This document shows positions 143 through 44,023 of a DNA stretch of 64,000 bases, piece by piece (the stretch's first letter is position 1; the number at the start of each line of letters is the position of its first letter). Position numbers and translations under genes: made by a program. The notes under the pieces were generated by a model, which was not told where the DNA came from, searched no databases, and was given only the letters and a program-made list of their open reading frames with translations. Origin of the DNA: Chitinophaga pinensis. Lineage in GTDB: Bacteria > Bacteroidota > Bacteroidia > NS11-12g > UBA9320. The stretch covers positions 45,005-109,004 of the forward strand of contig CAMDBP010000001.1 of the NCBI GenBank assembly GCA_945889315.1. The letters run 5' to 3'.

Positions 143-1147
143 CTAAAGCCCAAGTAAGGGAATCTCCCTTGGTTTTTCGCTTTGAACACGATCAATAATC
201 GCCTTGAGGTGTTCTGGGGTTGTTCCGCAGCATCCTCCAACTATATTTAAAAATCCGCTGCTCGCAAATTCTCCTACCACCTTACTCATACTTTCTGGTG
301 TTTCATCGTATTCGCCAAATTCATTTGGTAAGCCTGCATTAGGATGTGCGGATACTCTACACCATGCCTTATCACTCAATTCCTTGATAAATGGTCTCAT
401 TTGATCTGCACCCAAGGCGCAATTAAGACCAATACTTAGCGGTTTCGCATGACTAACACTATACCAAAACGCTTCCACAGTTTGACCGCTTAAGGTTCTT
501 CCGCTCGCGTCTGTTATTGTACCACTAATCATAATGGGTGTATCTAAACCCATTTCTTCTTTAACTTCTAGTATGGCGAAGATGGCTGCTTTACAGTTTA
601 GGGTGTCAAAGACCGTTTCAATTAAAAAAATATCTACGCCACCTTTTGCCAATGCGATGGTTTGCTGTCTATAGGTAGCAACTAAATCGTCGAAACTGAC
701 TGCTCTATAGCCCGGATTATTGACATCAGGAGATAGACTTGCGGTCTTATTAGTTGGTCCAATGCTTCCCGCTACGAAACGTGGCTTGTCTGGATTTTTA
801 GCGGTATACGTATCAGCTGCATTTCTAGCTAGTTTCGCAGAAGTTACATTTAACTCATCAACTAAAAATTCCATGTGATAATCGGCCATAGAAACCGCTG
901 TACTATTGAAACTATTTGTTTCAATAATATCGGCTCCAGCTTCTAAGAACTGATTATGAATTTCTGTAATGATATGAGGCTGAGTTATGGATAGCAAGTC
1001 ATTATTCCCTTTGAGATTATGTTGATAATCCGCAAATCGTTGCCCACGATATTGTTCTTCGGAGAGTTTGTGTTTTTGGATCATAGTACCCATTGCACCA
1101 TCCAAAAAAAGAATTCTGTCTTGTAATAATCGCTCTATTTTATGCAT
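143..1147 (-). CDS. Homocysteine S-methyltransferase domain protein (N-terminal Hcy-binding module of a split cobalamin-dependent methionine synthase)
   Basis: 334 aa. '[13 protein letters not shown]' aligns with the MetH N-terminus (E. coli 'ILVLDGGMGTMIQ'). C-terminal '[11 protein letters not shown]' is the Zn-binding cysteine triad region of the Hcy-methyltransferase fold. The protein ends where full-length MetH continues into the pterin-binding module. Confidence 0.85.
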
Positions 1148-1191
1148 CTCGGCAAAGATAAGGAGATTAAGCGAGCTTGCATTTCAAACTC

Positions 1192-1231
1192 AAATAAAAT
1201 TAACAAAAATGGCCAGACATAAAGTCTGGCC
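1192..1231 (-). terminator. Leader hairpin plus U-tract (candidate attenuator) about 45-85 nt upstream of the metH-N start
   Basis: Minus-strand RNA reads GGCCAGAC-UUUAU-GUCUGGCC (perfect 8-bp GC-rich stem, 1211-1231) followed by AUUUUUGUUAAUUUUAUUU. No minus-strand gene lies upstream, so it sits in the 5' leader rather than at a gene end. Confidence 0.45.
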
Positions 1232-1624
1232 ACATATACTAAAAGCTAAGTATTTCAACTTTAGAAAAGCTGAAAAATTTTTCTGCGTTATTGATTTAGA
1301 TTTTAAGAATATTTTTACTGGTTATGTTTGGTAAATTGCATACATACACGTCTACCCTATTTTAAAACTTATATTTACTCTATGCTTGATTTTATGGCAC
1401 AAACTTACTTAAAATTACCTAGCCGTCAACCACAATTCCCTTCATTCTATTTACAGTAAAGAATTAACGACAAAGGTAACATTACTCTAAATCGATATAG
1501 CCAGAAAAAAAAATGTCATTTAAAAATATTCATCTAAGTCAAATGTGGGAGTATGAGATGAAGTAGTTATTATTCCTGCAAGAATGAGCGCATTATTATT
1601 ATTTTTGCCCCTTGTAAAAAAGAA

Positions 1625-2608
1625 ATGGCAAGACAACTGCAAATACGCGAGGCCCTTCGTGAGGCAATGAACGAAGAAATGAGAAAAGATCCATCTGTGT
1701 TTCTTATTGGTGAAGAAGTAGCAGAATACAATGGCGCTTACAAGGTAAGTCAAGGTATGCTTGATGAGTTCGGACCAAAGCGGGTAATCGATACTCCTAT
1801 TGCGGAACTTGGATTTGCCGGTATAGCTACGGGGGCTGCAAGTAATGGACTCAAACCAATTGTAGAATTCATGACATTTAACTTTAGTCTTGTTGCAATT
1901 GACCAAGTAATAAATGCAGCAGCAAAAATGAATAGCATGAGTGGCGGTCAATTTACTTGCCCTATGGTATTTAGAGGACCAACCGGTAGCGCAGGACAAT
2001 TGGGTGCTCAGCACTCTCAAGCTTTTGAAAACTGGTACGCAAACTGCCCTGGACTCAAAGTTGTGGTTTTGTCTAATGCTTATAATGCAAAAGGTCTTTT
2101 GAAATCTGCTATTATAGATCCAGATCCAGTTATTTTTATGGAGAGTGAACAAATGTATGGCCTAAAGCACGATGTTCCTGAAGAAGAGTATTATATCCCT
2201 ATTGGACAAGCCAACATACAAAAAGCGGGCACAGACGTAACACTTGTATCATTTGGTAAAATGATGCGTGTTGCTGAAGACGCTGTTGTAGCATTAGCTG
2301 AAAAAGGAATAGATGTAGAACTTATCGACTTACAATCCGTAAGACCGATTGACTACCATACAATTGCTGAAAGTATAAAGAAAACAAATAGATGCGTTGT
2401 TTTAGAAGAAGCTTGGCCACTTGCGTCAATCTCATCTGAAATTAGTTACATGATGAGCCAAATGGTATTTGATCATTTGGACGCGCCGATAAAACGTGTA
2501 ACTACGCGTGATACACCGTTACCTTATGCTGCTACGCTAGTTGACGCGTGGTTACCCAACGTGCAACGTGTGGTTGAAGCGGTGGATGCTGTAATGTATA
2601 GAAAATAA
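1625..2608 (+). CDS. pdhB: Pyruvate dehydrogenase E1 component, beta subunit (transketolase-like)
   Basis: 327 aa with full-length similarity to E1-beta / transketolase C-terminal family: 'VFLIGEEVAEYNGAYKVSQGMLDEFGPKRVIDTPIAE', 'GFAGIATGAASNGLKPIVEFMTFNF'. Confidence 0.85.
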   Translation: MARQLQIREALREAMNEEMRKDPSVFLIGEEVAEYNGAYKVSQGMLDEFGPKRVIDTPIAELGFAGIATGAASNGLKPIVEFMTFNFSLVAIDQVINAAAKMNSMSGGQFTCPMVFRGPTGSAGQLGAQHSQAFENWYANCPGLKVVVLSNAYNAKGLLKSAIIDPDPVIFMESEQMYGLKHDVPEEEYYIPIGQANIQKAGTDVTLVSFGKMMRVAEDAVVALAEKGIDVELIDLQSVRPIDYHTIAESIKKTNRCVVLEEAWPLASISSEISYMMSQMVFDHLDAPIKRVTTRDTPLPYAATLVDAWLPNVQRVVEAVDAVMYRK

Positions 2609-2624
2609 TACCACTACATAAAAT

Positions 2625-2661
2625 AAAAAAGCCTCGTACCTCTGGTTTGGGGCTTTTTTAT
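2625..2661. terminator. Bidirectional rho-independent terminator between pdhB and trhO
   Basis: AAAAAAGCC-tcgtACCtctGGTttgg-GGCTTTTTTATTT. A-run before and T-run after. The T-run overlaps the trhO stop codon (2658-2660). Confidence 0.6.
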
Positions 2662-3668
2662 TTAAATCGACCTTTACTGAAAATACGAACGCCTGTATCT
2701 TTCCCTTTACGCAATGCACGTTGCTCTTCCTCTGGCAATGCAGCGATTGTTTGACATTCGACCGAACACGTACTACTATATTTTTGAGCACATTTAGGAC
2801 ATTGAATAAAGAGCAGATTACATGCTTTGTTTTTACAATTACTATGATCGTCAAAAGGTTCTCCGCACTGATGACAACTGGCAATTATATCATCTGTAAT
2901 TCGTTCATTGAGTCGTTCGTCAAAAACAAAATTTTTCCCAATAAATTTGTTAGGAAGTCCTTTTTCTTTGGCATCTCTTGAATATTTAATGATTCCTCCT
3001 TCTAAGTGGTAAACATCTTTAAACCCTTCATGCTTAAGATAAGCACTTGCTTTCTCGCACCTTATGCCGCCCGTGCAGTACATCACTACGGTTTTATCTT
3101 TTTGCTCTTGTAGCTCATGCACAACTAAAGGGAGTTGCTCCCTAAAGGTATCTACGTCAGGGCACCATGCTCCATCGAAATGTCCCACTTCACTCTCATA
3201 ATGATTACGCATATCAATAAGCAAGGTGTTTTCATCATCTATAAGCTTGTTAAATTCTTCCACATTTAAGTAGTTGCCTGGCTTGCTTACATCAAAAAGG
3301 TCATCTTCAAGTCCGTCTGCTACTATCTTAGATCTTACTTTTATAGCAAGTTTAAAGAACGATTTTCCATCATCATCTACAGCAAAATTTAACCTAATCC
3401 CTTTCAAAAAGGTAATGTTCTCCAACTCTGCTTTATACGCTTCCAACTTATTATTAGGCACGCTAAGTTGCGCATTGATTCCTTCGTGAGCTACGTATAT
3501 TCTTCCTAGCACCCCGAGTTGATCCCAATGGAAGAACAGATGATCTCTAAACAATTGGGGGTTGCCTATTTTGGCATACTTATAAAAGGAGATAGTAGTG
3601 CGTTTTTCGTCACTTGTTTTGATTTTCTTCTTTAATTCTTCCCCATTAATAGTATTATGCAATTTCAT
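2658..3668 (-). CDS. trhO: Rhodanese-domain protein of the YceA/UPF0176 family (tRNA U34 hydroxylase TrhO)
   Basis: 336 aa. Central rhodanese fold with active-site region 'VVMYCTGGIRCEKASAYL' and the family-typical C-terminal Cys cluster (CHQCGEP...CKNKACN...CPKC...CSVEC). Confidence 0.7.
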   Translation of the reverse strand: MKLHNTINGEELKKKIKTSDEKRTTISFYKYAKIGNPQLFRDHLFFHWDQLGVLGRIYVAHEGINAQLSVPNNKLEAYKAELENITFLKGIRLNFAVDDDGKSFFKLAIKVRSKIVADGLEDDLFDVSKPGNYLNVEEFNKLIDDENTLLIDMRNHYESEVGHFDGAWCPDVDTFREQLPLVVHELQEQKDKTVVMYCTGGIRCEKASAYLKHEGFKDVYHLEGGIIKYSRDAKEKGLPNKFIGKNFVFDERLNERITDDIIASCHQCGEPFDDHSNCKNKACNLLFIQCPKCAQKYSSTCSVECQTIAALPEEEQRALRKGKDTGVRIFSKGRFK

Positions 3669-3727
3669 GTTACACCCTTTTTAACGGTAGTACAAATGTA
3701 AAAAAAAGAAAAGGTAATTACTTTATG

Positions 3728-5134
3728 CTATTCCGAAGTAACTTTTGCGTTCTTGTTCATCTTGGTTACCTCCATGTACAACCAAATCCCTGCCCACAGG
3801 CCGGCCAATATCTCTCCTACTGGCATTGAAAACCAAACACCATCCAGGCCTGCAAAATGCGCAAAAACAAACATTAGAGGAATCATAAATATTCCTTGCC
3901 TAGCTAGGGTAAGAACTAATGCTGGCATTGGCTTCCCTATGGCTTGAAAATAGGCGCCTCCAATAAACCCTACACCCATGAGTGGTAAGGATATAAAAAT
4001 CCACTTCAGAACTCTAGGCGTATGGGCCAATAATTCTTTGTCTTCCGTAAAAATTTGTATTAGCGGCTTCGGGAACAAAAATAGAATCCCAAGCATTAGG
4101 ACAGATATACTAAAGGTCCATTTCAAGCCTAGAATTATAGTATCGCTTACTCTCGTCCAATTTTTAGCGCCATAATTATAACTTATAATAGGCATAAGTC
4201 CTTGCATTACCCCAATGATAGGAAACGCAATAAATAAGGTGTATCCTCTAATTAATCCAAAAATAGCTAAAGCATGTGAACCCCCTTTGTCTCCCAGGGT
4301 TGATGCATATTCAATATTACCCCATATATTAAGTTGACTGTTTAACACAATAGCCAATAAGCTAAACATCCCTTGCCGCACAAGTGTAATAGAACCGATT
4401 GAAGCAATTTCAGCGGTAACAGGAAGGTCTAGCTTAACATTGCTTTTGGTTAATTTCAATTCACTTCTACCCGATAAGAAAAACCACAAGGTATATCCGC
4501 CACTTAAACAATATCCTGCAGTAGTAGCCCATGCAGCACCGCTTATCCCCATGTCGAAATGATAGATAAGTATATAATCTAAAAAAATATTAGAAATAGC
4601 AGGGATAATCATGGTTAACATCGCCACTTTAGGTTTTCCTTCTGCTCGTATAACATTATTAGTCATCATAGCCCATCCTAGAAAAGGAAGACCTATGAGC
4701 AAAATATTAAAGTACTTCTTAGCATAAGGCAGAATTTCATAATTAGCACCAAACAACGTTAATATCTGATCCTGAAAAATAAAGCCAAGTAATACAAAAA
4801 CACCCACAAAAAACAACGTTAATATTATTTGATTCCCGAACGTTTTCTGAGCTTTCTTGGCGTCTCCTTCACCCAGAGCACGGGCTAAAACCGACGCCCC
4901 GCCTACTCCTATTGCCATACCAAAAGAAGAGATGAGAAATGTTATAGGAAGCACCACTGTAATGGCAGCTATTGCCACTTCACCTTCTGCGTAATGACTT
5001 ACAAACCAAACATCTACCATCTGGTATAATGACATCACCAAAAAGCCGCAAGCAGCAGGCAGTGATTGTTTCAGCAACAAAGACCCTATTTTGTCAGTCC
5101 CAAGTCTATCGGAGGATTTACTTTGCTTTTCCAA
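3728..5134 (-). CDS. MATE family efflux transporter
   Basis: 468 aa, about 12 predicted TM helices, internal two-fold repeat typical of NorM/DinF MATE pumps. Confidence 0.75.
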   Translation of the reverse strand: MEKQSKSSDRLGTDKIGSLLLKQSLPAACGFLVMSLYQMVDVWFVSHYAEGEVAIAAITVVLPITFLISSFGMAIGVGGASVLARALGEGDAKKAQKTFGNQIILTLFFVGVFVLLGFIFQDQILTLFGANYEILPYAKKYFNILLIGLPFLGWAMMTNNVIRAEGKPKVAMLTMIIPAISNIFLDYILIYHFDMGISGAAWATTAGYCLSGGYTLWFFLSGRSELKLTKSNVKLDLPVTAEIASIGSITLVRQGMFSLLAIVLNSQLNIWGNIEYASTLGDKGGSHALAIFGLIRGYTLFIAFPIIGVMQGLMPIISYNYGAKNWTRVSDTIILGLKWTFSISVLMLGILFLFPKPLIQIFTEDKELLAHTPRVLKWIFISLPLMGVGFIGGAYFQAIGKPMPALVLTLARQGIFMIPLMFVFAHFAGLDGVWFSMPVGEILAGLWAGIWLYMEVTKMNKNAKVTSE

Positions 5135-5268
5135 AGGGGCAAATGTAATGCTTTAGCTTTTGAGAATTTAACCTTTGAATTTTTGTAGGTTACCGATTTG
5201 CTATCCTTTATTAATCTCATTATTAATACTATGCTATTAATTGAATACATTTCATTTTCTTTGCACTA

Positions 5269-5925
5269 GTGAATTATTTAAGTCATTATTATTTCGACCA
5301 AGACGAGGAGAATAAGTATTACAACATTGGACTAATACTGCCAGACCTTGCTAGAGCGCATATTTCAAAGCTCAGAATAAATCCATACAAGAATATCACC
5401 TTCACTACTAAGGAGATATCAAGTATGAATGATGGGACAAATAGACACTTTGCCAGTGATCGTAAATTTCATAACTGGATGACGTTTGTAGATTTAACAA
5501 ACAAAGCTACAGACATGATCAGAGAAAGTGGCGACAAAGACATTAACCGCGATTATTTTATAACTCACATAATGGTTGAAGTATTACTTGACAAAATACT
5601 CTTAGATAAAAACCCGAGTTTAGCGGACGACTTTTACAACATGATAGACAGTGTGGAACAAGATTGGGTACTTAAATTCATGCGATATGCTGGGTTACAA
5701 GATGACGAGTTATGGAAAGGGCAACATCGCCGATTTATGAAAGCTCGTTTCTTAGCCAACTATACCAGTTTAGAAAATGTGGTTGCGGCCGTTGAGGGAG
5801 TTTGCGCTAAACTAGGCATGATAGAACTTAATGACGACCAACGTCAATTACTAGTTGATATTTGTGAAACAATAGAACCTGAATTAGAACGTTCTATTGG
5901 TGCCCTCGAGATTCAACTCCTGTAA
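5269..5925 (+). CDS. Acyl carrier protein phosphodiesterase (AcpH)-like protein
   Basis: 218 aa, GTG start. N-terminus 'MNYLSHYYFD...GLILPDLARA' parallels E. coli AcpH 'MNFLAHLHLA...GNLLADFVRG'. A downstream H..H..D pattern (GTNRHFASDRKFHN) parallels 'GIHMHRRIDVLTDN'. Confidence 0.5.
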   Translation: MNYLSHYYFDQDEENKYYNIGLILPDLARAHISKLRINPYKNITFTTKEISSMNDGTNRHFASDRKFHNWMTFVDLTNKATDMIRESGDKDINRDYFITHIMVEVLLDKILLDKNPSLADDFYNMIDSVEQDWVLKFMRYAGLQDDELWKGQHRRFMKARFLANYTSLENVVAAVEGVCAKLGMIELNDDQRQLLVDICETIEPELERSIGALEIQLL

Positions 5926-5929
5926 AAAT

Positions 5930-7063
5930 ATGCTATCTCATACGAAACAAGTCCTTGCATTACTATCCGTTTTACTTTTTGCAGGTACCAATTTGTATGC
6001 ACAATCCGCTCCTAAATACAGTAACGAATTTTTATCAATAGGCTTAGGCGCTCGAGCTTTTGGTATGTCCAACTCCGTAATAGCATCTGTAGAAGATGTA
6101 ACTGCAGGATATTGGAACCCTTCGGCCCTCGTAAAGCAAGAGGATAAAATACAACTATCTTTTATGCACTCTGCTTTATTTAGCGGAATTGCCAATTATG
6201 ATTATTTAGGCATTAGTACAAAAGTTAATGAGAATGCAGCTCTCAGCTTTTCGATGATTCGATTTGGGGTAGACGGCATTCCTAATACCTTAGACCTTGT
6301 TCGAAATGGTCAGATAGACTACAATAGAGTAACAGAGTTTAGTGCCGTAGATTACGCTTTTATCGTCAGTTATGCTCAAAAAGCCATCAAAAATGGATTA
6401 AGCATTGGCGGAAGTGCGAAAATCATAAATCGTAAAGCAGGTGAATTTACGACCGCTTGGGGATTTGGAATAGACGCAAGTGCTCTTTATGAAACTCAGA
6501 ATAAATGGATTTTTGCAGCTGTGGCTCGTGACGTGACTACCACTTTTAATGCATGGAAATATAATTTCACAGACGCTGAGATTCAAACTTTTCAAAGCAC
6601 AGGAAATGAGGTTCCCATAAACTCCCTAGAATTTACCTTCCCAAAGCTACTTTTAGGAGTTTCTAAAAAAATCAACTTTAATGACGATTACACTTTCTTA
6701 ACAGAATTGAACATGGATTTAAATACCGACGGTAGACGTAATACATTGCTTCGAACCAACTTAGTTAGTGGAGACCCACATTTAGGTGTGGAAGCTGGCT
6801 ACAAAGACATCATCTTTTTACGAGGTGGACTAGGCAACGTGCAGCAGGTTAAAACCGAAGATATATTGAACACTGAGATTATAGACGGTAAGACTATTAC
6901 GAACTATAAATCTGAATGGACGTTTATGCCTAACATAGGCGTTGGGTTAAAACTCAAAAATTTAAGTATAGACTACGCACTTACTGACGTAAGTAACCAA
7001 AGCGCAGCCCTATTGTCTCACGTATTTAGTATACGTGCAGCTGTAAATGCTCCAAAAAAGTAA
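5930..7063 (+). CDS. PorV/PorQ-family (FadL-like) outer-membrane beta-barrel protein, T9SS-associated
   Basis: Signal peptide MLSHTKQVLALLSVLLFAGTNLYAQ; the track ORF starts at TTG 5897, but ATG 5930 gives the signal peptide. N-terminal 'LSIGLGARAFGMSNSVIASVEDVTAGYWNPSAL' has the NPAG/NPSA-type motif of FadL/PorV hatch regions. About 380 aa, beta-rich, C-terminal aromatic-rich strands. Confidence 0.45.
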   Translation: MLSHTKQVLALLSVLLFAGTNLYAQSAPKYSNEFLSIGLGARAFGMSNSVIASVEDVTAGYWNPSALVKQEDKIQLSFMHSALFSGIANYDYLGISTKVNENAALSFSMIRFGVDGIPNTLDLVRNGQIDYNRVTEFSAVDYAFIVSYAQKAIKNGLSIGGSAKIINRKAGEFTTAWGFGIDASALYETQNKWIFAAVARDVTTTFNAWKYNFTDAEIQTFQSTGNEVPINSLEFTFPKLLLGVSKKINFNDDYTFLTELNMDLNTDGRRNTLLRTNLVSGDPHLGVEAGYKDIIFLRGGLGNVQQVKTEDILNTEIIDGKTITNYKSEWTFMPNIGVGLKLKNLSIDYALTDVSNQSAALLSHVFSIRAAVNAPKK

Positions 7064-7101
7064 GCAATCCACTACTTTTCGTAGCGTCTTAACTTTCAAA
7101 T

Positions 7102-7785
7102 TTGTACATTTCGTGTACTAAAATGAACTTCGAACAAGCAATTCTAAATCAACTCGAGGCAAACGCTAATACACAACAAGCGGTTAAAATGGCTGACTAC
7201 ATGAAAAACAAGTTTGTTTTTTATGGTATTAATAGCCCTACACGAAAACTCATTTGTAAAGAACTATACAACGAATACGGCGTTCCCGAAAATGCTATTG
7301 AAGTAGCCAAAGTACTCTTTTTACGACCGCATCGGGAGTGTCACTACATAGCGCAAGAACTACTTCTTATGGCAAAAAATCAATGGAAGGAGCATCACAT
7401 AGAAGACATAGAATGGTTTATTTTACAAAATAGTTGGTGGGATACTGTAGACTTTTTAGCTAGTAATGTGGTCGGAGCCTATTTTAAAAAATGGCCAGAG
7501 AATAAAGCCGACATTATACATCATTGGAATGTAAGTGAAGACATATGGCTAATTAGAACCTCTATTCTATTTCAACTAAAATACAAATCAAAAGTGGATA
7601 CAATCCTATTGGCAAATAGCATTTTACCTCATACCCAAAACAAAGCGTTTTTCATTCGAAAAGCAATTGGCTGGGCACTTCGGAGTTATGCCGATGTAAA
7701 TCCATCATGGGTGATTTCTTTTACAGAAAACAACGAATTACAGCCACTAAGCATCAAAGAAGCACTTCGAAAACTCCCTAAGTAA
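7102..7785 (+). CDS. DNA alkylation repair protein (AlkC/AlkD-like HEAT-repeat glycosylase family)
   Basis: About 220 aa, helical repeat protein with a family-typical C-terminus 'FIRKAIGWALRSYADVNPSWV'. True start may be ATG 7123 (MNFEQAIL...). Confidence 0.65.
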   Translation: MYISCTKMNFEQAILNQLEANANTQQAVKMADYMKNKFVFYGINSPTRKLICKELYNEYGVPENAIEVAKVLFLRPHRECHYIAQELLLMAKNQWKEHHIEDIEWFILQNSWWDTVDFLASNVVGAYFKKWPENKADIIHHWNVSEDIWLIRTSILFQLKYKSKVDTILLANSILPHTQNKAFFIRKAIGWALRSYADVNPSWVISFTENNELQPLSIKEALRKLPK

Positions 7786-7789
7786 GTCA

Positions 7790-8137
7790 TTATCCATTAA
7801 CCCATGTTTTTCTGCGATAGCTAAATAATGCGCCAGAAAGTCCAAAAAAGCCTGCTACTAATCCCCCTAAACATGCGCTAAGAATGGGCGTAGACCAGTT
7901 GGGCAGTAAAAGCAACTTACCCATTAATTCAGCTACTACGCCATTGTCTTTGAGGTAAATAGCCAACAGCCAAGTACCAAATACTGCTAGAAAAGGAACA
8001 CCAAAACCCGCTGCTGATTTCATTCTACCTAGGTATGCCACAACAAAGGAAATAGGCGCTATTACCCACCAAGGCGCAACCAGTGAGCACAAAACAGTTA
8101 GTATACTTATGGAGACAAAGAGAATACTATTTTTCAT
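7790..8137 (-). CDS. Small integral membrane protein (3-4 TM), translationally coupled to the upstream acylase
   Basis: 115 aa, hydrophobic. Start overlaps the last 11 nt of the 8127-10535 gene. Confidence 0.5.
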   Translation of the reverse strand: MKNSILFVSISILTVLCSLVAPWWVIAPISFVVAYLGRMKSAAGFGVPFLAVFGTWLLAIYLKDNGVVAELMGKLLLLPNWSTPILSACLGGLVAGFFGLSGALFSYRRKTWVNG

Positions 8138-10535: not shown

Positions 10536-10583
10536 TGGTATTCGAATGAACTAAATTGAGATTCTCATGTTTGTAAAGTTGTA

Positions 10584-12469: not shown

Positions 12470-13237
12470 ATGAATGCAATAGATCAAGGTGATGTAAACT
12501 ACACCATAGAAAATGGAATTGCTACCGTACAATTTCACCACCCTTTAAGCAACTCTTTACCCGGCAAGGTACTTGCTAAACTTGCAAATACGATTACTGC
12601 TATTGGATCGAATAACGATGCGGTAGTCATTATCGTGAGAAGTGAAGGTGATCGTGCCTTTTGTGCAGGTGCCAGTTTTGATGAGCTCGTAGCAATAGAA
12701 AATTTAGCTAAAGGCGCCGTATTCTTTTCTGGATTTGCCAATGTGATAAATGCGTGTCGTAAATGCCCTAAACTTATTATTGGTCGGGTGCAAGGCAAGG
12801 CGGTAGGCGGCGGAGTTGGACTAGCAGCTGCATTCGATTATACACTTGCCACGACTCAAGCTTCTGTAAAACTGAGCGAATTGGCTGTAGGGATTGGCCC
12901 TTTTGTAGTTGGCCCAGCAGTAGAACGCAAAATTGGCTTGTCCGCTATGAGTCAACTTGCAATAGATGCTACCGAATGGCAATCAGCAAAATGGGCTCAA
13001 GACAAGGGTCTATATACCAATGTGTATGATACCTTAGAAGAGATGGACGCTGCTATTGACAGCTTAGCTCAAAAACTAAAAAATAGCAATCCGGAAGCAA
13101 TGCGATTACTCAAAGAAGTATTTTGGAGAGGAACAGAAGACTGGGATACCTTACTTTCAGAACGCGCTTCCATCAGTGGACAATTGGTGCTTTCTGACTT
13201 TACTAAAAACGCGATTAACAGCTTTAAAGCTAAGTAA
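12470..13237 (+). CDS. Enoyl-CoA hydratase/isomerase (crotonase) family protein
   Basis: 255 aa. 'VVIIVRSEGDRAFCAGASFDELV' oxyanion-hole region and 'GRVQGKAVGGGVGLAAAFDYTLAT' second helix of the crotonase fold. Confidence 0.8.
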   Translation: MNAIDQGDVNYTIENGIATVQFHHPLSNSLPGKVLAKLANTITAIGSNNDAVVIIVRSEGDRAFCAGASFDELVAIENLAKGAVFFSGFANVINACRKCPKLIIGRVQGKAVGGGVGLAAAFDYTLATTQASVKLSELAVGIGPFVVGPAVERKIGLSAMSQLAIDATEWQSAKWAQDKGLYTNVYDTLEEMDAAIDSLAQKLKNSNPEAMRLLKEVFWRGTEDWDTLLSERASISGQLVLSDFTKNAINSFKAK

Positions 13238-14331: not shown

Positions 14332-14336
14332 TAATC

Positions 14337-33836: not shown

Positions 33837-33839
33837 ACA

Positions 33840-35066: not shown

Positions 35067-35145
35067 TTTGAAAATTAACATGAACCTCATTAAATTTACC
35101 AACTTTTTGGATTTTAAAAACAAGAATAACAAACCGTATAAACGT

Positions 35146-38100: not shown

Positions 38101-41100
38101 TATAACGGTGGGGGTGTATTAGCACCAAGTAGACCAGGAAGTGCACTTCCATTCCAATTACCGTATAGCATAGTAGGAAATACCGGGACACAATTCTTAA
38201 AAGGATATACTCCTGGACAAATTGGTACAGGACAACGTTCACCTGCAGGATCATTTACCGTTGGTTTAATTGTAGGAAATGGTGTACCTCAAGCAAATGG
38301 ATTGCCTGCTTGCTTAGATACCGCTTACTATCCTGATATGTTCAGAATTCTATATATGAATCCTGCATTTACTCTATTAAACAGCTCACCACACATGTGT
38401 GCCGGCGCAACTGCTTATTTCCAACTAGAAGATCCTATACAAGATAGTATTACAGCACTTAGATGGAACTGGGGTTACCCAGGTAATGTTGGCCGTGGAC
38501 CTCAACAAGGTGGTTATTCTGAAGAGTTTTATTACTACAAAGAATACAACGGACCACAAGCTAATAGAAATGACGCTGGTATCGCTTATAATGGTGAAAA
38601 ATGGTTGTATAATTTTATCGTTAGATATAATATAGATGACCTTTCGGGTACTAAACTGATCGATACTATTGTGGTAAACATTATCAAGAAATGGGAAGTA
38701 GTCGCTTCTAAAAAGCAAGTTAGTAAGGAAGTAATAGACCTTTTCCTTCGTGAAAACTTAATTTATCAAGACATCCCAGCGGAAGACATTCCATTTTACT
38801 TAGGTGATGGTTCTAACAATTGTGTTGATACTACTAGTTTTGGCTCATTCTTCCAATTTGGAATTAAAGCATACCATCAAAAATCTGATCCAGATGTATG
38901 GCAAGTTGGTAACAAACGTTACTTATGTAACACTTATAACCCAGCTATAGTATCTGACACCACATTCTTCCTGAATGGCTCTGGCAATAGAGTTCCTTCA
39001 TTACAATATCCAAGTATAGATTCATTTACAATTGTTCAAAACGTAACAAATCGTAACAAGGCTAATTGTACCAGTTCTGTTGAAGTTACTCAAATTCTTC
39101 ACTTCAGAGATTCTTCTCTTAAAGGGTATGATACGTATGAAAGAGATTACGATAATGACGGGGTGATAGATGAAGTAATTACCGGCGTATATAAACATAC
39201 TTACAGATATCCTGTGGTGCGAGCAATTGATCCGTGTGATCCTTCGGTAAAAGATACCATTTGGGTTGCCGCAAATGCACCTATGACACCTAACTTTAGA
39301 TTAAACAACACCACGGGTTGTGGTGGATTTGGTGCAATATCTATGAATGTTGGATTCTACAATGACTTCTGGATGGATTCAACGGCTATTTGCCAAGGAT
39401 TGACATTATTTGTTGAAGATTCTATTAGATACTACCAATTAGGTGAGCAGGATCCTCCTACTTACCCAATTCACGATTTTGCACTATGGCAAGATCCTGC
39501 TAGATTTATTCCTAACATTGAAACCGTTTATTATGATTGGGACAGTACCGACGGTGTGTGGGATAATTACCAGTCTATTGTACCGAATCATTTCTACCCA
39601 GACCCAGGAAAATATACCATTACGATCATACCTAAAGATAGTACCGGCTGTAGAGATACCTCGTATATTGATGTAACCATTTCTAAAGTAAACCCTGTTA
39701 TTTCATTTGCCACATCAATCGTTAATTGTGCTTCGATAGTTGATTTCAAAGATTCTACCTGGTTTGTAGATCCTTGCGACACATTATGTCCAAATGGAAA
39801 CAACGTATCGTGTGAAAAATTACTTACCTGGAATTGGGATTTCGGAGACGGCACGCGAAACAGTAAACTTCAAAATCCTTCGCATAACTTTACTTCGAGT
39901 GGTAGCTATGACATTACACTCACGGTTACGTCTAAGCTAGGTTGTGAAGAAACTATTATCCGAACAATCTATATACCTGGTCCACAGCCTGATTTTGAAT
40001 TTGACTTAGATGAGTTTAATTTAAACGATACAGCTACTATATGCGTTGGCGATTCGCTGCTACTCGTGAACTTAAGCAAAGGAGACATTTCTGCACCTAA
40101 GTTTATAATGGACTGGGGAGATAAGACCTTTTCTCAACCAACTAATACAACGGGTAAATACGGACACACGTATACTACTGCTGGAACATACTTATTATTC
40201 TTAACACAAGAAGACGTAATACCCGGTACTAGCAATCGTTGTCAAAGAATGTTCCCGGATACCAATCCTGATATTCAAAATCAGCGACGTATAGTTGTGA
40301 TTGTAAAACCATTGCCAGAAGTAAATATTACAGCATCAAAAGACACTGTTTGTTTAGGCGAAGAAATCACCTTTAGTGGAACACTTGATCCAAGATACAC
40401 CCGAGTTAAATGGGATATGGCTAAGTTAGACACTATAAACGGAATTGTTCCTCAGGATACAGTAGTTAAATATATCTTTAAACAGCCTGGAACATTCACC
40501 GTAGTGCTAAGACCAGAGTATGATTTAAAACCTCGTTGTTGGGCAACCGATTCAATCGATGTATTTGTACAATCTGTAACTGCAGCATTTGATATTGTTC
40601 CTGACGGAGCACCTAACTTCTGCTTTACAAATACTTCTACAACTAGTCCATCTGGCAATGTCTTGACCTATGAATGGACGTTTGAAGATGAGACTCCTCC
40701 AGGACCAGGAAGTAGCACGGATACAGATCCTTGTTACAATTGGAACGAGCACGTAGGTATTTATGAGATTTGTCTTATCGCTACGGATGCTTTAGGTTGT
40801 AAAGACACGGTATGCCAAGATATCGAAAATGTATTCCAAACAAAACTTGTTCCTTACAATGTGTTTACGCCAGATGGTAAAGGTCTAAACGAAACATTTG
40901 TAATTGAAGGAGAAAGCTTACAGGAGTATCATATCAAAATCTACAATCGTTGGGGAGAATTAGTATTTGAAACTGAAGATGTGAAAAATTCTTGGAATGG
41001 TAAAGTTAAGAATAGTGGTAACGATTGTCCAGAAGGCACATACTTCTACGTAATTAAATACATGTTTGAATTTGACGACAAGTCGGAAACAATCGAAGGA

Positions 41101-41121
41101 ACCGTTGACATTATCCGATAA
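35146..41121 (+). CDS. Giant (about 1990-2017 aa) PKD-repeat cell-surface protein with a T9SS type-B sorting domain (SprB-like adhesin class)
   Basis: Signal peptide MNKSFNSASLTRYLASFVLLVTSFLAYSQ; the track start 35068 adds 26 aa before it. Many PKD-type 'WDFGDG/WNFGD' motifs. Gly/Pro linker 'PAPGGGGGVPTPGPS'. C-terminus 'YNVFTPDGKGLNETFVIEG...IKIYNRWGELVFE...WNGKVKNSGNDCPEGTYFYVIKY' is the type-B CTD. Confidence 0.85.
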   Translation: MNKSFNSASLTRYLASFVLLVTSFLAYSQCNPKVMYNGNWSSTGVFCLGEIISFDANSPGYNSTTVWDFGDAGPGTSTSEKPSYSFAQAGTYTVKYTGTGGAGTCTGNVTVIVRPSPEIHVRQLTNDTQCYSGNSFCFRDSIVAPDGSIERLVMLFSDGTKVDTTFTGGAGKLKIFDFCVTINDPAGGFFDMVIEAYDTSGCLTKYTFTDYIYVHPKLGIKFDNITPKPNPGCDSTLGVFLNTSLIALADIDTFMWDFGDGNIQRGSSTVNTQWWFGIDGKDTIKHMYTINGTFNGTLSVSAYGCSETFTWKNAVTNFVVDPKIVSTPNPACVADNPIEFSVTNFNTAGMSAFLWNFGDPPSGPANFDKDNFSPTAHGYGPGPWMISLRIQQGPCDVTIYDTIQVIGPISTIGVPNDQVAYNQTYQCLITDSVQMVNNSSYYQNDYNQLDEDSIVFYFDYSFDYNFDNTTGITKFIVRKWKEDKNGNKILSADTFPKTDTLSFMGYKAYFDTAKDSIAVINGKDTVWQKYYYNATSYRGGINGRKRWVFRYVPPPGGKGVGTGNQTAIDPTLNVRDYNPNVWRVWTMDDRYAPQCTTDSRPWVNRNVGINCNWSIDSVPIHWYTPWDEVYRTLNNGQNYRRPKVDKRLFKADTICYEVNVYSDSFMVVPRFIYINVPADSAYTYFLPYDGLNPAVNGYRDTIVLTASSLGRKIHYMDSSHLSVFQQETYIVINRPPSRFIGTEFYYDAAVDSFYAVNNLTDTTVLAADPLGRWNKTAGNGTTRWSTTTSEMSFYVPDGVTITTINLPAPGGGGGVPTPGPSYTGPKTIILPANTQFTLQSKDSLFSLKHIQTVARTTTNALPSSYPYKDMFGKTRFGSAIFVDSALHREDWFDNNAVCFNVILWQKDTIHPLLCESQATKSLALVPPNAKGLEWADGTPCPFTGNFQYILGFDMADTKPGCTQSWFAVNYDTFQLPTNQTGSWAVYNGGGVLAPSRPGSALPFQLPYSIVGNTGTQFLKGYTPGQIGTGQRSPAGSFTVGLIVGNGVPQANGLPACLDTAYYPDMFRILYMNPAFTLLNSSPHMCAGATAYFQLEDPIQDSITALRWNWGYPGNVGRGPQQGGYSEEFYYYKEYNGPQANRNDAGIAYNGEKWLYNFIVRYNIDDLSGTKLIDTIVVNIIKKWEVVASKKQVSKEVIDLFLRENLIYQDIPAEDIPFYLGDGSNNCVDTTSFGSFFQFGIKAYHQKSDPDVWQVGNKRYLCNTYNPAIVSDTTFFLNGSGNRVPSLQYPSIDSFTIVQNVTNRNKANCTSSVEVTQILHFRDSSLKGYDTYERDYDNDGVIDEVITGVYKHTYRYPVVRAIDPCDPSVKDTIWVAANAPMTPNFRLNNTTGCGGFGAISMNVGFYNDFWMDSTAICQGLTLFVEDSIRYYQLGEQDPPTYPIHDFALWQDPARFIPNIETVYYDWDSTDGVWDNYQSIVPNHFYPDPGKYTITIIPKDSTGCRDTSYIDVTISKVNPVISFATSIVNCASIVDFKDSTWFVDPCDTLCPNGNNVSCEKLLTWNWDFGDGTRNSKLQNPSHNFTSSGSYDITLTVTSKLGCEETIIRTIYIPGPQPDFEFDLDEFNLNDTATICVGDSLLLVNLSKGDISAPKFIMDWGDKTFSQPTNTTGKYGHTYTTAGTYLLFLTQEDVIPGTSNRCQRMFPDTNPDIQNQRRIVVIVKPLPEVNITASKDTVCLGEEITFSGTLDPRYTRVKWDMAKLDTINGIVPQDTVVKYIFKQPGTFTVVLRPEYDLKPRCWATDSIDVFVQSVTAAFDIVPDGAPNFCFTNTSTTSPSGNVLTYEWTFEDETPPGPGSSTDTDPCYNWNEHVGIYEICLIATDALGCKDTVCQDIENVFQTKLVPYNVFTPDGKGLNETFVIEGESLQEYHIKIYNRWGELVFETEDVKNSWNGKVKNSGNDCPEGTYFYVIKYMFEFDDKSETIEGTVDIIR

Positions 41122-41151
41122 GATAAGCTAAAACAAAACTTAGCATACCAT

Positions 41152-41188
41152 AAACTGCCTTGACGAATAACGTCAAGGCAGTTTTTTT
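41152..41188 (+). terminator. Rho-independent terminator after the giant adhesin gene
   Basis: AAACTGCCTTGACG-aataa-CGTCAAGGCAGTTTTTTTAT: 14-bp perfect stem plus T7. Confidence 0.85.
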
Positions 41189-41210
41189 ATGTTCAAAAAA
41201 TAATAACTTT

Positions 41211-41340
41211 GCGTCGCTTATAAAGAAAGACTGAGGGATTAGGCCCGGAGAAGTCTTAGCAACCTGAAAGCCATACTTTTTGCTATTCAAGGTGCTACAT
41301 CCTATCAAGACGTACAAATCTTGAGCAGATAAGCTTCTCA
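41211..41340 (+). promoter_or_regulatory. SAM-I (S-box) riboswitch in the leader of the metH C-terminal-half gene
   Basis: GCUUAUAAAGAAAGACUGAGGGAUUAGGCCCGGAGAAGUCUUAGCAACC...AAGGUGCUACAUCC...CAAGACGUACAAAUCUUGAGCAGAUAAGC. Compare the SAM-I consensus CUCUUAUCAAGAGAGGUGGAGGGACUGGCCCGAUGAAACCCGGCAACC...GGUGCCAAUUCC...AGAUGAG. P1 (GCUUAU/AUAAGC), P2 (AAGACU/AGUCUU), the GGUGC P3 motif and P4 (CAAGA/UCUUG) are all present. It lies 30 nt upstream of ATG 41369. Confidence 0.85.
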
Positions 41341-41368
41341 ACTCTCCTAACTCTTCAGCACAAAGTAA

Positions 41369-44023
41369 ATGGGAAAATCAATACATAATTATTTGCGCTT
41401 GAGCGGTTTAGAGCCGATGGTTCAAACTCCAAATATTAATTTTATTAATATTGGAGAGCGCACAAATGTTACAGGTTCTAAGGCTTTTGCGAATCTTATC
41501 CTCAATAATAAATATGACGAAGCACTCTCTGTAGCTCGATCTCAAGTAGAAAATGGTGCACAGGTCATAGATGTGAATATGGACGAAGGAATGCTGGATG
41601 GCAAAGCCGCTATGGTTAAATTTCTAAACTTAATAGCCGCTGAACCAGACATTAGTCGAGTACCTGTGATGATTGACTCTAGCAAGTGGGATATTATTGA
41701 GGCCGGACTTAAAGTTATCCAAGGCAAAGGAATTGTAAATTCTATCAGCCTAAAAGATGGAGAAGAGGCATTTATTGCCAGAGCCGAAAAAATAAAACGC
41801 TATGGGGCTGCCACAGTTGTGATGGCATTTGACGAAAATGGCCAAGCAGATTCATACGAAAAACGAATTGCTATCTGTGAAAGATGCTATCACATACTCA
41901 CTCAGAAAGTAAACTTCCCTCCATCCGACATCATTTTTGACCCTAACATTTTAACTGTCGCTACAGGTATTGAAGAACATAATAATTATGCGGTTGACTT
42001 TATAAAAGCAACCAAATGGATTAAAGAAAATTTGCCATATGCTAAAGTAAGTGGCGGGGTAAGCAATATATCATTCAGTTTTAGGGGGAATAACATCGTG
42101 CGGGAAGCAATGCACTCTGCCTTCTTATATCATGCTATTCAAGCGGGATTAGACATGGGTATCGTGAATGCTGGGATGATAGAAGTTTATGAAGAGATCC
42201 CAAAAGAACTATTAATAAGGGTAGAAGATGTTTTGCTTAATCGCAGAGATGACGCCACTGAACGATTAGTAGATTTTGCCGAGACAGTAAAAGGTGATGG
42301 CAAAAAGATAGTACTTGACTTAAGCTGGAGAGATCAAAGTGTTGAAGAACGACTTAAACACTCCCTTATAAAAGGTATTACAGATTACATAGATGAAGAT
42401 ACGGAAGAAGCACGTCTAAACTATGCTAAACCCTTACACGTCATTGAAGGACCGCTAATGGCCGGCATGAACGTAGTAGGCGACTTATTTGGTGCGGGCA
42501 AAATGTTCTTACCACAGGTAGTGAAAAGTGCCCGTGTGATGAAAAAATCCGTAGCGTATCTAAATCCTTACCTTGAAGCAGACAAAAGTGAAGGCGATAC
42601 GCAAGGTAAAATACTAATGGCCACCGTTAAGGGAGACGTTCATGACATTGGAAAAAACATTGTAGGTGTTGTATTGGCTTGCAACAATTATGAAATAATT
42701 GACTTAGGCGTTATGGTTCCCGCAAATAAGATCTTGGATGAAGCTATAAAGCATAATGTAGACGTGATTGGGCTCAGTGGACTCATCACTCCCAGCTTAG
42801 ACGAGATGGTAGACGTAGCCGCTGAAATGGAACGTAGAGGCATGAAATTACCTTTACTTATTGGCGGAGCAACTACGAGCAGAGTACATACTGCTGTAAA
42901 GGTGGCACCTCATTATAGCGGACCGGTGGTACACGTGCTGGATGCATCGCGGTCTGTTCCTGTAGCAGGTAAACTTATCGGGCAAAGTACCCGAGAATTA
43001 TTTCAAGCTGAGATAAAAGCAGAGTATACTGAGTTAGCTATACAGCATGCTGCTCGTCAAGCGGATAAAGTAATTTTACCATGGGGCGAAGCCAATGCTA
43101 ATAAGTTAAAATTAGATTGGGATACCTTTACTCCTGTACCCCCGCCACAACTTGGAATAACTGTTTTTGATGACGTTGATTTAAATGAAATTAGGGGCTT
43201 TATAGATTGGACGCCATTCTTCTCGACTTGGGAATTACGCGGGAAATATCCTAACATTTTCCAAGATGAATATGTGGGTGATGAAGCTAAGAAACTTTTT
43301 GCGGATGCAGTGGTCATGTTAGATGACATAATAACTCACAAAAAACTTCAAGCAAAGGCTGTATTAGGCGTATTCGAAGCAAATGAAGAAAATGGCGATG
43401 TACTGCTTACAAATGGGACTAAATTTAATTTCCTAAGACAGCAACGCAAAATGGGAAATGACATTCCTAACATCTCACTTGCCGACTATATAGCACCCAA
43501 AAACAGTGGCAAAAAAGATTACCTCGGAGCCTTTGCGGTAACCGCAGGCATTGGCATAGAGTCACTTATTGACGCATTTGAAGCAGACCATGATGATTAC
43601 AACTCCATAATGGTGAAGGCAATTGCCGATAGGCTCGCAGAAGCAATGGCTGAATTCATGCATCAAAAAATGCGAAAAGAAATTTGGGGCTACGCTGCAG
43701 AAGAAACACTAACCAACGAAGAGCTCATATACGAAAAATACCAAGGTATTCGTCCCGCAGCTGGTTATCCCGCAAGTCCGGATCATACCGAAAAAGAAAC
43801 GTTATGGAAACTGTTAGATGTGGAGAATAAAACAGGAATCAGCCTTACTGAAAGCTATGCAATGTACCCTACAGCTTCAGTTTCTGGATTATATTTTGCT
43901 CATCCAGAAGCTAAATACTTTGCCGTAGGCAAGATAGATACAACTCAAGTAGCAGATTATGCAGAACGAAAAGGTGCTGATTTCAATGCTACCAAAAAAT
44001 GGCTCGGTCCTAATTTATTTTAG
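41369..44023 (+). CDS. metH: Methionine synthase, B12-dependent: pterin-binding, cobalamin-binding and AdoMet-reactivation modules (C-terminal ~3/4 of MetH; Hcy module encoded separately)
   Basis: 884 aa. Begins at the MetH linker ('LRLSGLEP'). Pterin-binding barrel. B12-binding '[25 protein letters not shown]' (DxHxxG...S...GG). C-terminal activation domain '[12 protein letters not shown]...'. Confidence 0.9.

Follow-up and report, generated by a model that had tools for sequence, protein, structure and literature searches.

The cobalamin (B12)-dependent methionine synthase (MetH) of an uncultured marine Bacteroidia bacterium is encoded by two unlinked genes, a split of a known kind. In the 64,000-nt stretch of DNA analyzed here (the window), the two genes, metH-N and metH-C, lie on opposite strands about 40 kb apart. 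As a whole, we judge it probable, though well short of certain, that MetH is split in this way, that a SAM-I riboswitch controls the large subunit, that the small subunit is expressed from a leaderless mRNA, and that a hairpin upstream of metH-N is the terminator of a separate RNA. The coordinates of all features are collected in Table 1.

Table 1 Features of the metH-N and metH-C regions, in window coordinates.
Feature	Position	Strand	Evidence or remarks
metH-N, 334 aa; homocysteine-binding (Zn) module of MetH as a separate protein	143..1147	-	PF02574 sole match
P1, metH-N sigma-A -7 box TATCTTTG, with its end 5 nt ahead of the ATG	1153..1160	-	invariant in alignment A1, columns 468-475
Intrinsic terminator with a stem of 10 bp (6 G-C pairs), a 5-nt loop and a U-tract	1195..1233	-	-18.7 kcal/mol; stem invariant in four lineages
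Invariant 84-nt non-coding block: SL1 (9 bp), SL2 (5 bp), terminator; proposed small-RNA 3' domain	1202..1286	-	conservation and predicted fold
P2, candidate sigma-A promoter TTG (1429-1427)-N19-TAAGTTTG (1407-1400)	1400..1429	-	conserved -7 positions
-7 box TATTTTTG of the divergent neighbor pdhB; other boundary of the intergenic region	1600..1607	+	A1 columns 1-75 ~90% conserved
pdhB CDS, divergent from metH-N	1625..2608	+	domain matches
Terminator of the preceding 2017-aa PKD/CHU_C gene	41155..41188	+	stem kept via compensatory changes in relatives
-7 box TAACTTTG of the riboswitch/metH-C promoter	41204..41211	+	TAACTTTG/TATATTTG conserved in relatives
SAM-I (S-box) riboswitch aptamer	41215..41335	+	RF00162, 70.6 bits vs gathering 44.4, model positions 1-108
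Spacer, 33 nt	41336..41368	+	no terminator inside
metH-C, 884 aa, pterin-binding, B12-cap, B12-binding and AdoMet-reactivation modules	41369..44023	+	PF00809, PF02607, PF02310, PF02965

Two unlinked halves of methionine synthase

In a domain profile search, S-methyl_trans was the only domain matched in the metH-N product (E 3.8e-98), and the zinc-ligand motifs GLNCALG and GGCCGTTP are visible in its translation. The metH-C translation carries the motifs GDVHDIGKN (DxHxxG) and GLSGL, and the domain search found no homocysteine-binding (Hcy) module of its own in it. When the two products were aligned to the full-length chain of human MetH (9ssp_A), residues 3-330 of metH-N corresponded to chain residues 21-347 (398 bits) and residues 6-883 of metH-C to chain residues 352-1260. 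The halves abut at the Hcy/Fol linker with neither overlap nor gap (chain residue 347, N-half residue 330; chain residue 352, C-half residue 6), and in fused homologues the matches to the two halves are contiguous and in frame. These domains and complementary alignments bear out the original prediction that MetH is divided at the inter-module linker into unlinked genes of opposite strand.

Proteins with PF02574 as their only domain include homocysteine S-methyltransferases of the MmuM/BHMT type. The 334-aa protein might accordingly be an independent enzyme of this sort, using S-methylmethionine or another donor, with the 884-aa protein having a different partner or being inactive; its gene is unlinked to the C-half, lacks a SAM riboswitch and has a seemingly constitutive promoter. 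We regard this as very unlikely, however, since metH-N shares 62-68% identity along its entire length with the N-terminal module of the fused enzymes (92 loci) and aligns as well as it does to the human enzyme, since it ends at the very linker residue at which a C-half devoid of an Hcy module begins, and since in more distant Bacteroidota its orthologue adjoins the C-half as the upstream gene, behind a shared SAM-I riboswitch.

Split MetH enzymes have been described in Sphingomonas koreensis, in two parts (PMC7857596), and in Phaeobacter inhibens, in three parts that are not all adjacent (locus tags c13370, c16040 and c13350; PMC5764234), and genetic evidence for joint function of the parts exists in both species. 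As in these systems, the modules here reside on separate polypeptides that must cooperate, with the Hcy module (PF02574) a protein of its own. In contrast to them, the only cut is at the Hcy/Fol linker, the large part keeps a standard PF02965 reactivation domain, the two genes are separated by tens of kilobases on opposite strands, and the unlinked layout is fixed in a marine Bacteroidia clade whereas other Bacteroidota keep the halves adjacent. Physical association and joint catalysis of the two products are assumed from fused homologues and from the split systems of other bacteria. By this analogy, the synthase would be made from two separately encoded polypeptides, a small subunit consisting of the Hcy/Zn module and a large subunit of the Fol, Cap, B12 and AdoMet modules, and the B12 domain would have to dock in trans on the Hcy module.

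The arrangement of the halves was compared across 160 related loci, of which 92 are fused, 13 have adjacent halves, 15 are split by a gap of >300 nt, and in 39 the available flank contains no C-half. The last group includes every close relative (N-half identity 64-98%), and no C-half was found within 3.3-6 kb either side of the N-half in the ~25 loci with enough flank. Conversely, the 120 best C-half homologues are all 800-884 aa long and all lack PF02574. This synteny comparison, which had been proposed as a check, indicates that unlinked halves are common to all close relatives and are a fixed feature of an entire clade of marine Bacteroidia; the 13 adjacent loci agree with the earlier statement that relatives often have neighboring halves. 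At three loci (L022, L024 and L066) the order is SAM-I, N-half, C-half, which on these comparisons is the apparent ancestral layout. No riboswitch was found in front of the N-only loci L002, L004, L005 and L008, which, in these relatives, goes against the idea that each of two separated halves needs regulation of its own.

SAM-I riboswitch and expression of metH-C

A SAM-I riboswitch had been recognized before the C-half, and the search with RF00162 confirms it over the full model. Matches of 68-72 bits were also obtained in four relatives (L171, L172, L175 and L176) before C-halves 86-96% identical, and the P4 helix is replaced compensatorily in relatives (alignment A3). Because a terminator follows the preceding PKD/CHU_C gene, the riboswitch and metH-C constitute their own transcription unit. 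Its transcription start is predicted at 41216, coinciding with the first bases of the aptamer.

The element thus resembles other SAM-I (S-box) riboswitches in matching the whole model, in lying 5' of a methionine-cycle gene and in beginning at the predicted transcription start, but it differs from them in controlling only one of two subunits, in having just 33 nt from the P1 helix of the aptamer to the ATG, and in its lack of an intrinsic terminator, none being found in the 33-nt spacer. To our knowledge, Bacteroidota is a phylum without Shine-Dalgarno sequences. Given this, the short distance and the missing terminator, the expression platform would have to act differently, probably on initiation. 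Within the spacer, CCUAACUCUUCAG (41346-41358) can pair at 12 of 13 positions with the aptamer segment CUGAGGGAUUAGG (41231-41243), and by eye this pairing is kept in alignment A3 both in L175, where C to U changes give G-U pairs, and in L171, with a bulge. An anti-aptamer pairing of these segments is therefore a possible part of the expression mechanism.

In the mechanism that we propose, metH-C would be transcribed from its own promoter behind the SAM-I riboswitch, and enzyme output would fall when SAM is plentiful. Since the enzyme would need both parts, control of the large subunit alone would suffice.

Terminator and predicted promoter upstream of metH-N

On the minus strand, the hairpin upstream of metH-N consists of GTGGCCAGAC (1233-1224), the loop TTTAT and GTCTGGCCAT (1218-1209), followed by TTTTGTTAATTTTATTT. 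With a G+C-rich stem-loop leading directly into a U-tract, it is an intrinsic (Rho-independent) terminator. Pair probabilities in context are ~1.0, and the surrounding 121 nt fold with z = -5.5 against shuffles. A terminator scan of positions 1-2000 returned 3 candidates against 1.7 expected, which is not itself an enrichment; what places this hairpin above chance is its conservation in four lineages, across which the stem is invariant, the loop is TTTAT or TTCT (4-5 nt) and 5-9 U follow. The perfect GC hairpin with a U-tract reported in the original prediction is therefore real, its stem being 10 bp long, and the accompanying observation that no gene lies upstream on the same strand also stands, as no protein-coding gene is found there and pdhB is divergent.

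In Bacteroidetes, the sigma-A -7 box occupies positions -12 to -5, and leaderless mRNAs make up 5.5% in Flavobacterium psychrophilum (PMC9723704). Of 21 orthologous metH-N loci, whose upstream DNA is otherwise unrelated, 20 have a box of the form TAnnTT[T/C]G that ends 4-5 nt ahead of the ATG. Within the window, TAnnTTTG is enriched 4-24 nt before gene starts (22 occurrences vs 8-11 for control motifs), and the same geometry puts the start of the riboswitch promoter on the first aptamer bases. Since a box at this distance would place the first transcribed nucleotide at the ATG, transcription of metH-N is predicted to start at 1148/1147 and to yield a leaderless mRNA, and the hairpin would then lie ~60-85 nt upstream, at about -62 to -86, outside that mRNA. 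This resembles the leaderless mRNAs from sigma-A promoters (-33 TTG / -7 TAnnTTTG) of F. psychrophilum, in which the distance of the box likewise puts +1 on the start codon, although the starts were mapped there (PMC9723704), whereas the assignment for metH-N comes from motif position and from conservation among the orthologues. The small subunit would thus be produced from a leaderless mRNA of a sigma-A promoter, with no metabolite-sensing leader.

The distribution of the hairpin also bears on its role. It is present only in lineages with at least 96% N-half identity and absent in orthologues at 75-92%. For example, L168 and L169, which are 92% identical and have the same pdhB synteny, possess a 192-nt intergenic region that lacks the hairpin and keeps the -7 box, and the hairpin is likewise missing from L002-L006 and L083-L090. 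These comparisons suggest that it is dispensable for metH-N.

A conserved non-coding block and its interpretation

The terminator forms the end of an 84-nt block that is far more conserved than its surroundings. Among four lineages, between-lineage identity is 0.90-0.96 in the block, compared with 0.45 for the intergenic DNA next to it and 0.53-0.74 for the 4-fold sites in metH-N. A covariance model of the block (R1) matched a single time per locus in 7 loci and had no other match; neither the window nor 42 loci contain a further copy, and viral contigs gave no match. All 24 of the predicted pairs are invariant in 5 sequences, and hence there is no covariation support for the fold. Three of the 4 substitutions inside the block fall at unpaired positions, and the other, a within-species variant (L164/L166), breaks a pair of SL2. 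No conserved ORF was found in the block on either strand, the short ORFs being broken by a loop indel or missing ATGs.

A candidate promoter, P2, lies upstream of the block. Its -7 positions T, A, T, T and G and its +1 A are invariant columns (221, 222, 225, 226, 228 and 233), against 45% identity in the rest of this stretch; the -7 box of L167 is TACTTTCG, and the -33 element has a non-canonical spacing in two lineages. From P2, transcription is predicted to begin at A1395; an RNA running from there to the terminator would measure ~195 nt, of which the 5'-most ~110 nt are not conserved between lineages. The region thus displays, at the sequence level, the attributes of a small-RNA gene: a putative promoter of its own, no coding capacity, its own terminator and purifying selection.

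The original prediction had instead placed the hairpin inside the metH-N 5' leader and read it as a riboswitch or attenuator expression platform. In such a model, P2 would drive a long metH-N leader, the hairpin would be the terminator arm of the regulatory element in it, and both halves would answer methionine or SAM status. A conserved, promoter-like P2 does lie upstream with a terminator between it and metH-N, selection is strong on the 84-nt stretch that ends with the terminator, and the pathway is often riboswitch-controlled, with SAM-I preceding the N-half where the halves are adjacent. However, an Rfam search for an aptamer upstream of the hairpin, including SAM-II, SAM-V, SAM-VI, SAM/SAH and leader families, matched no family: 4227 families run on both strands of 1050-1700 at E<=10 gave only terminator-like sub-threshold matches (e.g. 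Hrs12, 33.6 vs 70), and a search at E<=1 in two relatives (L162 and L170) likewise matched none. When the region was folded with the 3' arm of the hairpin removed, the 5' arm remained essentially unpaired, and no antiterminator or other pairing competing with the terminator stem emerged. The block is 32% GC with two simple hairpins, and no conserved leader peptide was found upstream of metH-N. Moreover, metH-N keeps its own invariant -7 box, which would put its start at the ATG, downstream of 1192, as the original prediction had itself named as counter-evidence, and homologous leaders outside the narrow clade, in orthologues at 75-92% identity, lack the element entirely. We therefore consider a metH-N leader unlikely, both as to the position of the hairpin and as to its proposed function.

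It is also conceivable that the block does not act through an RNA product. It might be a DNA-level site, for instance for a regulator of pdhB or metH-N, combined with a terminator that insulates the leaderless P1 promoter against transcription from upstream, or a recent insertion that has yet to diverge. Such an origin would fit the restriction of the block to a narrow clade and its absence from a close relative of the same synteny, the lack of covariation, and its position directly upstream of the P1 promoter region. Still, we find this explanation rather doubtful: near-invariance over 84 nt is far longer than a typical operator, the extent of the block matches exactly that of a three-hairpin fold whose last hairpin is the terminator, and flanks of 45% identity in the same genomes imply that the element has existed long enough for a neutral sequence to diverge. 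The single copy per locus and the absence of viral matches additionally argue against a mobile repeat.

Most likely, then, the hairpin terminates a short, conserved non-coding RNA and does not belong to a metH-N riboswitch. In the proposed mechanism, it would act as the constitutive intrinsic terminator of a separate transcript upstream of the metH-N promoter, probably starting at P2 near 1395 and carrying the invariant block (1286-1202) as its 3' domain. The best reading is a candidate small RNA of ~195 nt confined to one genus-level lineage of marine Bacteroidia. It resembles the intergenic small RNAs of Bacteroidetes, with a promoter of their own and an intrinsic terminator, that are catalogued in Bacteroides thetaiotaomicron (PMC7366714) and F. 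psychrophilum (PMC9723704): a short unit without coding capacity is flanked by divergent genes, has a promoter of sigma-A type, stem-loops and a strong terminator, and is most conserved in its 3' part. The candidate differs from known Bacteroidetes small RNAs in having no match among Rfam families, with Flavo-1 and Bacteroides sRNA models included in the search, and in being found, from sequence alone, in one genus-level lineage only. Duplex energies of the putative RNA with the 5' regions of metH-N, metH-C and pdhB were average (-11.4 to -11.8 vs a mean of -12.1), and no target was found among these three regions by this measure.

Transcription from P2 may read through into metH-N. In its strongest form, the P2 transcript (~1395 to 1200) would be a regulatory leader of a new class, in which conditional read-through of the terminator across P1 tunes metH-N to the SAM-controlled C-half. 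We think this quite improbable; if true, the P2 leader would be a metabolite- or protein-responsive attenuator without a known aptamer. A less far-reaching and likelier alternative takes the P2 transcript to be a new small RNA that acts in trans, in a genus of marine Bacteroidia that is abundant and uncultured.

Two complementary halves of MetH

The only Pfam match of the metH-N product, the Hcy module, is PF02574 (homocysteine S-methyltransferase, E 3.8e-98), and the metH-C product carries PF00809 (pterin binding), PF02607 and PF02310 (B12 cap and B12 binding) and PF02965 (AdoMet activation). Against solved structures, residues 3-330 of the 334-aa protein align to residues 21-347 of full-length human MetH (9ssp_A), and residues 6-883 of the 884-aa protein align to residues 352-1260 of the same chain. 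The halves are therefore exactly complementary, with the cut falling within the Hcy/Fol linker, and both Zn-ligand and cobalamin motifs are readable in their translations. Domain content and alignments thus bear out the original prediction of a MetH divided into two genes on opposite strands, and its other sequence observations (both ORFs, the SAM-I riboswitch and a GC hairpin upstream of metH-N) also proved correct. Unlinked halves are a known kind of gene split: split MetH systems have been validated genetically, and in Phaeobacter inhibens the parts are likewise not all adjacent (PMC5764234). As judged from these systems and from the modular MetH cycle, the large subunit would have to bring its B12 domain to the Hcy module in trans for catalysis to proceed.

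Linkage of the halves was compared across 160 loci with N-half relatives, gathered from genome and metagenome collections. A full-length, fused MetH is encoded at 92 loci, and the halves are neighbouring genes at 13 (e.g. in Flavobacterium beibuense, Lutibacter and Chitinophaga) or are separated by a 0.3-3.4 kb gap at 15 (e.g. in Chryseobacterium). The order C then N occurs once, in a metagenomic relative (L095, 508-4113) whose adjacent halves are reversed (C-half 508-3120, N-half 3139-4113). At the other 39 loci, about 25 of which are flanked on both sides by 3.3 kb or more of sequence, no C-half is present in the available flank, and these include every close relative (64-98% identity to the window gene). 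Two close relatives, L082 and L090, derive from Tara Oceans data. The best 120 C-half homologues are all 800-884 aa long and all without PF02574, and their neighbourhood matches that in the window, with a giant PKD/CHU_C protein, the C-half, a GT4 glycosyltransferase and NlpC/P60. Since the close relatives have no nearby C-half and the 120 homologues no PF02574, the unlinked arrangement is fixed throughout a clade of Bacteroidia that are uncultured and for the most part marine, and is no peculiarity of one genome.

The metH-N gene of a related locus, L001 (CAMDCQ010000171.1), is 98% identical to that of the window, and its intergenic region is syntenic with the marine Bacteroidia lineage; true Chitinophaga loci (L019, L025) are ~65% identical and have adjacent halves. 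Given this identity and synteny, the Chitinophaga pinensis label on L001 looks wrong. Downstream, a gene for a 134-aa protein (L163, 4055-4459) starts 50 nt beyond metH-N and is cut off by the edge of the window. Its product has no Pfam match and a lipoprotein-like N-terminus; the gene is absent in L168 and L169 and may be co-transcribed with metH-N.

Features of the two metH loci in the window
Feature	Coordinates	Strand	Sequence or remark
134-aa protein gene (partial)	1-93	minus	downstream of metH-N
metH-N	143-1147	minus	334 aa
metH-N -7 box (P1)	1160-1153	minus	TATCTTTG; predicted +1 at 1148/1147
Conserved block	1286-1202	minus	84 nt, ends in hairpin
Hairpin	1233-1209	minus	GTGGCCAGAC, loop TTTAT, GTCTGGCCAT, then TTTTGTTAATTTTATTT
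Rejected 41-aa ORF	1209-1334	plus	very likely spurious
Candidate promoter P2	1429-1427 and 1407-1400	minus	TTG-N19-TAAGTTTG; predicted +1 A at 1395
pdhB -7 box	1600-1607
pdhB	1625-2608		divergent from metH-N
PKD/CHU_C gene terminator	41155-41188
metH-C -7 box	41204-41211		TAACTTTG; predicted start 41216
SAM-I riboswitch (RF00162)	41215-41335		complete
Aptamer segment	41231-41243		CUGAGGGAUUAGG
Spacer	41336-41368
Pairing part of spacer	41346-41358		CCUAACUCUUCAG
metH-C	41369-44023	plus	884 aa

The SAM-I riboswitch before metH-C

The SAM-I riboswitch that had been proposed before the C-half scores 70.6 bits against a gathering score of 44.4. It is kept at the equivalent place before all C-halves 86-96% identical to that of the window (68-72 bits); in the leaders of these relatives a conserved -7 box lies 5 nt before the aptamer, and the P4 helix is replaced compensatorily. 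The -7 box in the window predicts a start at the first bases of the aptamer. Where the halves are adjacent, SAM-I precedes the N-half as the first gene (L022, 5829-5931; L024, 5808-5913; L066, 5843-5942), and in the unlinked clade no Rfam element was found at the N-half (loci L002, L004, L005, L008). Because the riboswitch stands before the N-half when the halves are adjacent and before the C-half in the window clade, the simplest history suggested is that an operon ordered riboswitch, N, C lost its N-half to another site, so that the C-half came to follow the riboswitch directly.

No terminator accompanies SAM-I before metH-C, and the aptamer ends only 33 nt from the ATG; the same is seen in relatives. 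The spacer can pair at 12 of 13 positions with a segment of the aptamer, and this pairing is retained in the metH-C leaders of relatives by C-to-U changes or a shifted register, with G-U pairs in L175 and a bulge in L171. The pairing points to competing folds that would regulate translation initiation, and it may be an anti-aptamer helix acting on translation in a phylum that lacks Shine-Dalgarno sequences. The large subunit would be produced under SAM control.

Other RNA elements were seen near these genes. The terminator of the 2017-aa PKD/CHU_C (T9SS-type) gene upstream of metH-C has a stem kept by fully compensatory changes in relatives (CTGCCTTGACG, CCGCCTTGAT, CCCTTGTGTCG). In Flavobacterium beibuense (L024, 3926-3985, minus strand), a SAM-II (long-loop, RF01726) riboswitch lies 2 kb from the SAM-I/metH operon on the opposite strand, and in Lutibacter (L066, 9733-9811, plus strand) a Flavo-1 RNA directly follows the metH C-half.

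The metH-N start and the upstream hairpin

The original prediction placed the GC hairpin inside the 5' leader of metH-N, as an attenuator or riboswitch expression platform. The intergenic region is 477 nt long and is bounded by the divergent pdhB. All 21 orthologous metH-N upstream regions compared carry a Bacteroidetes sigma-A -7 box (TAnnTT[T/C]G), whose end lies 4 or 5 nt ahead of the ATG in 20 of them and 24 nt ahead of it in the other. The position holds even though these regions have different neighbouring genes and hence, for the most part, share no related DNA farther upstream. The box of Flavobacterium psychrophilum spans -12 to -5, and leaderless transcripts make up 5.5% of the mRNAs in that species (PMC9723704); the same geometry puts the predicted +1 of metH-N on its start codon. 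Two checks within the window agree with this geometry: the predicted start of the riboswitch promoter falls at the first bases of the aptamer, and TAnnTTTG precedes 22 long ORFs window-wide, most often at a distance of 4-24 nt from the ATG, whereas control motifs precede 8-11. A sigma-70-type promoter scan, a model not applicable to this phylum, gave no enrichment. From the conserved box position, the F. psychrophilum geometry and both checks, we infer that the metH-N mRNA is leaderless. With a predicted start downstream of 1192, the hairpin would lie outside this mRNA, 62-86 nt ahead of the start codon, and not in a leader. The small subunit would be translated from a leaderless message that apparently escapes metabolite control; controlling one subunit would be enough because the enzyme needs both.

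Leaders in this genome appear to be very short, and the genes at 12470, 13981 and 1147 look leaderless. In a more distant Flavobacteriales group (L008, L009, L010, L011, L036 and L045; 64-70% identity), an uncharacterised ORF occupies the ~600 nt upstream, and its stop meets or overlaps the beginning of the N-half; the N-half there therefore looks operonic, not leaderless.

The hairpin itself is present where first described, with a folding energy of -18.7 kcal/mol and a pair probability in context of ~1.0. Among the upstream regions compared, it is absent in metH-N orthologues at 75-92% identity; L168 and L169 keep the pdhB-metH-N synteny with only 192 nt of intergenic sequence and no hairpin. 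Four lineages hold it (the window species, L001, L081/L167 and L161/L162/L170). In their alignment the pdhB-side region is ~90% conserved, and identity between the two sub-clades drops to 45% over the central 250 nt. The 84-nt block that ends in the hairpin is 90-96% identical, with few differences, located in loops and the U-tract. Identity at the four-fold degenerate sites of metH-N, compared in the same way, is 53-74%. On this sequence comparison, the hairpin is apparently dispensable for metH-N, yet not junk. The predicted fold of the block comprises two hairpins, of 9 and 5 bp, and the 10-bp terminator. A covariation check was uninformative since all pairs are invariant, and one within-species SNP breaks a pair.

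Coding by the block was rejected. The 22-aa and 32-aa minus-strand ORFs and the 88/41-aa plus-strand ORF that overlap the hairpin are not kept in relatives, being frame-shifted by a 1-nt loop indel or without an ATG in L001, L167 and L161. The 41-aa ORF, a gene-caller call in L163 (2814-2939) that starts at an ATG inside the hairpin, is very likely spurious because the indel leads to an early stop in these three loci. A repeat or mobile element was also rejected: a BLAST search with the intergenic region found no other copy in the window or the 160 loci (the block is single-copy in the window), a covariance model of the block (R1) run over 447 kb did not find it in 42 other loci, and two exact-pattern scans of viral contigs returned no copy. 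That so conserved a block acts at the DNA level, or is purely insulating, is considered unlikely.

A second regulatory leader, on metH-N, is unsupported. Rfam searches of the metH-N leader (4227 families, E<=10) and of two homologous leaders (E<=1) gave only sub-threshold, terminator-driven matches (Hrs12, SorX, SorY and L20 leader), discarded as noise. When the 3' arm of the hairpin is removed, the fold leaves the 5' arm unpaired, without a competing partner, and therefore no antiterminator is present. There is no leader peptide, the short ORFs over the block not being conserved, and the block is a 32% G+C stretch of simple hairpins. An attenuator on metH-N is thus quite improbable. A canonical-looking promoter-like site, P2, lies upstream of the block. 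Its -7 positions and predicted +1 are invariant columns in the otherwise 45%-identical stretch, and the metH-N box downstream of the terminator is likewise invariant; the -33 spacing of P2 is non-canonical in two lineages. Four results against an attenuator and three for a separate transcript therefore lead to reading the hairpin as a terminator of non-coding RNA, and the existence of such an independent RNA appears somewhat probable.

The candidate RNA would be ~195 nt long, with a constitutive terminator and the conserved 3' domain as its functional part. A start at ~1286, just after a semi-conserved CTAAAT, was considered, but this box is a poor sigma-A match and P2 is tentatively preferred. 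Duplex energies of the candidate RNA, calculated against 47 gene starts in the window, predicted no target: the metH-N, metH-C and pdhB 5' regions were average, and the top matches were unrelated genes, uninterpretable in AT-rich sequence.

Consequences of the probable operon break

The candidate small RNA, apparently confined to one lineage, would be a modest by-product and a modest addition to the very small RNA catalogue of uncultured marine Bacteroidia. Modest by-products of the same kind are a likely leaderless subunit gene and the probable evolutionary trace of a riboswitch staying with one half. The locus also carries a warning: a strong terminator ahead of a biosynthetic gene need not act as an attenuator, and with leaders as short as those of Bacteroidetes, the first thing to look at is where the -7 box lies. 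The two metH genes would be a clear natural case of a broken operon in which the riboswitch remains with one subunit only, the other apparently having become a leaderless gene without a recognisable regulatory leader. In this abundant marine clade, a 334-aa "homocysteine S-methyltransferase family protein" and a distant 884-aa "methionine synthase" should jointly be scored as a single functional MetH. Software that looks for pathway gaps on the assumption of a fused or neighbouring pair could otherwise mis-call these organisms methionine auxotrophs.
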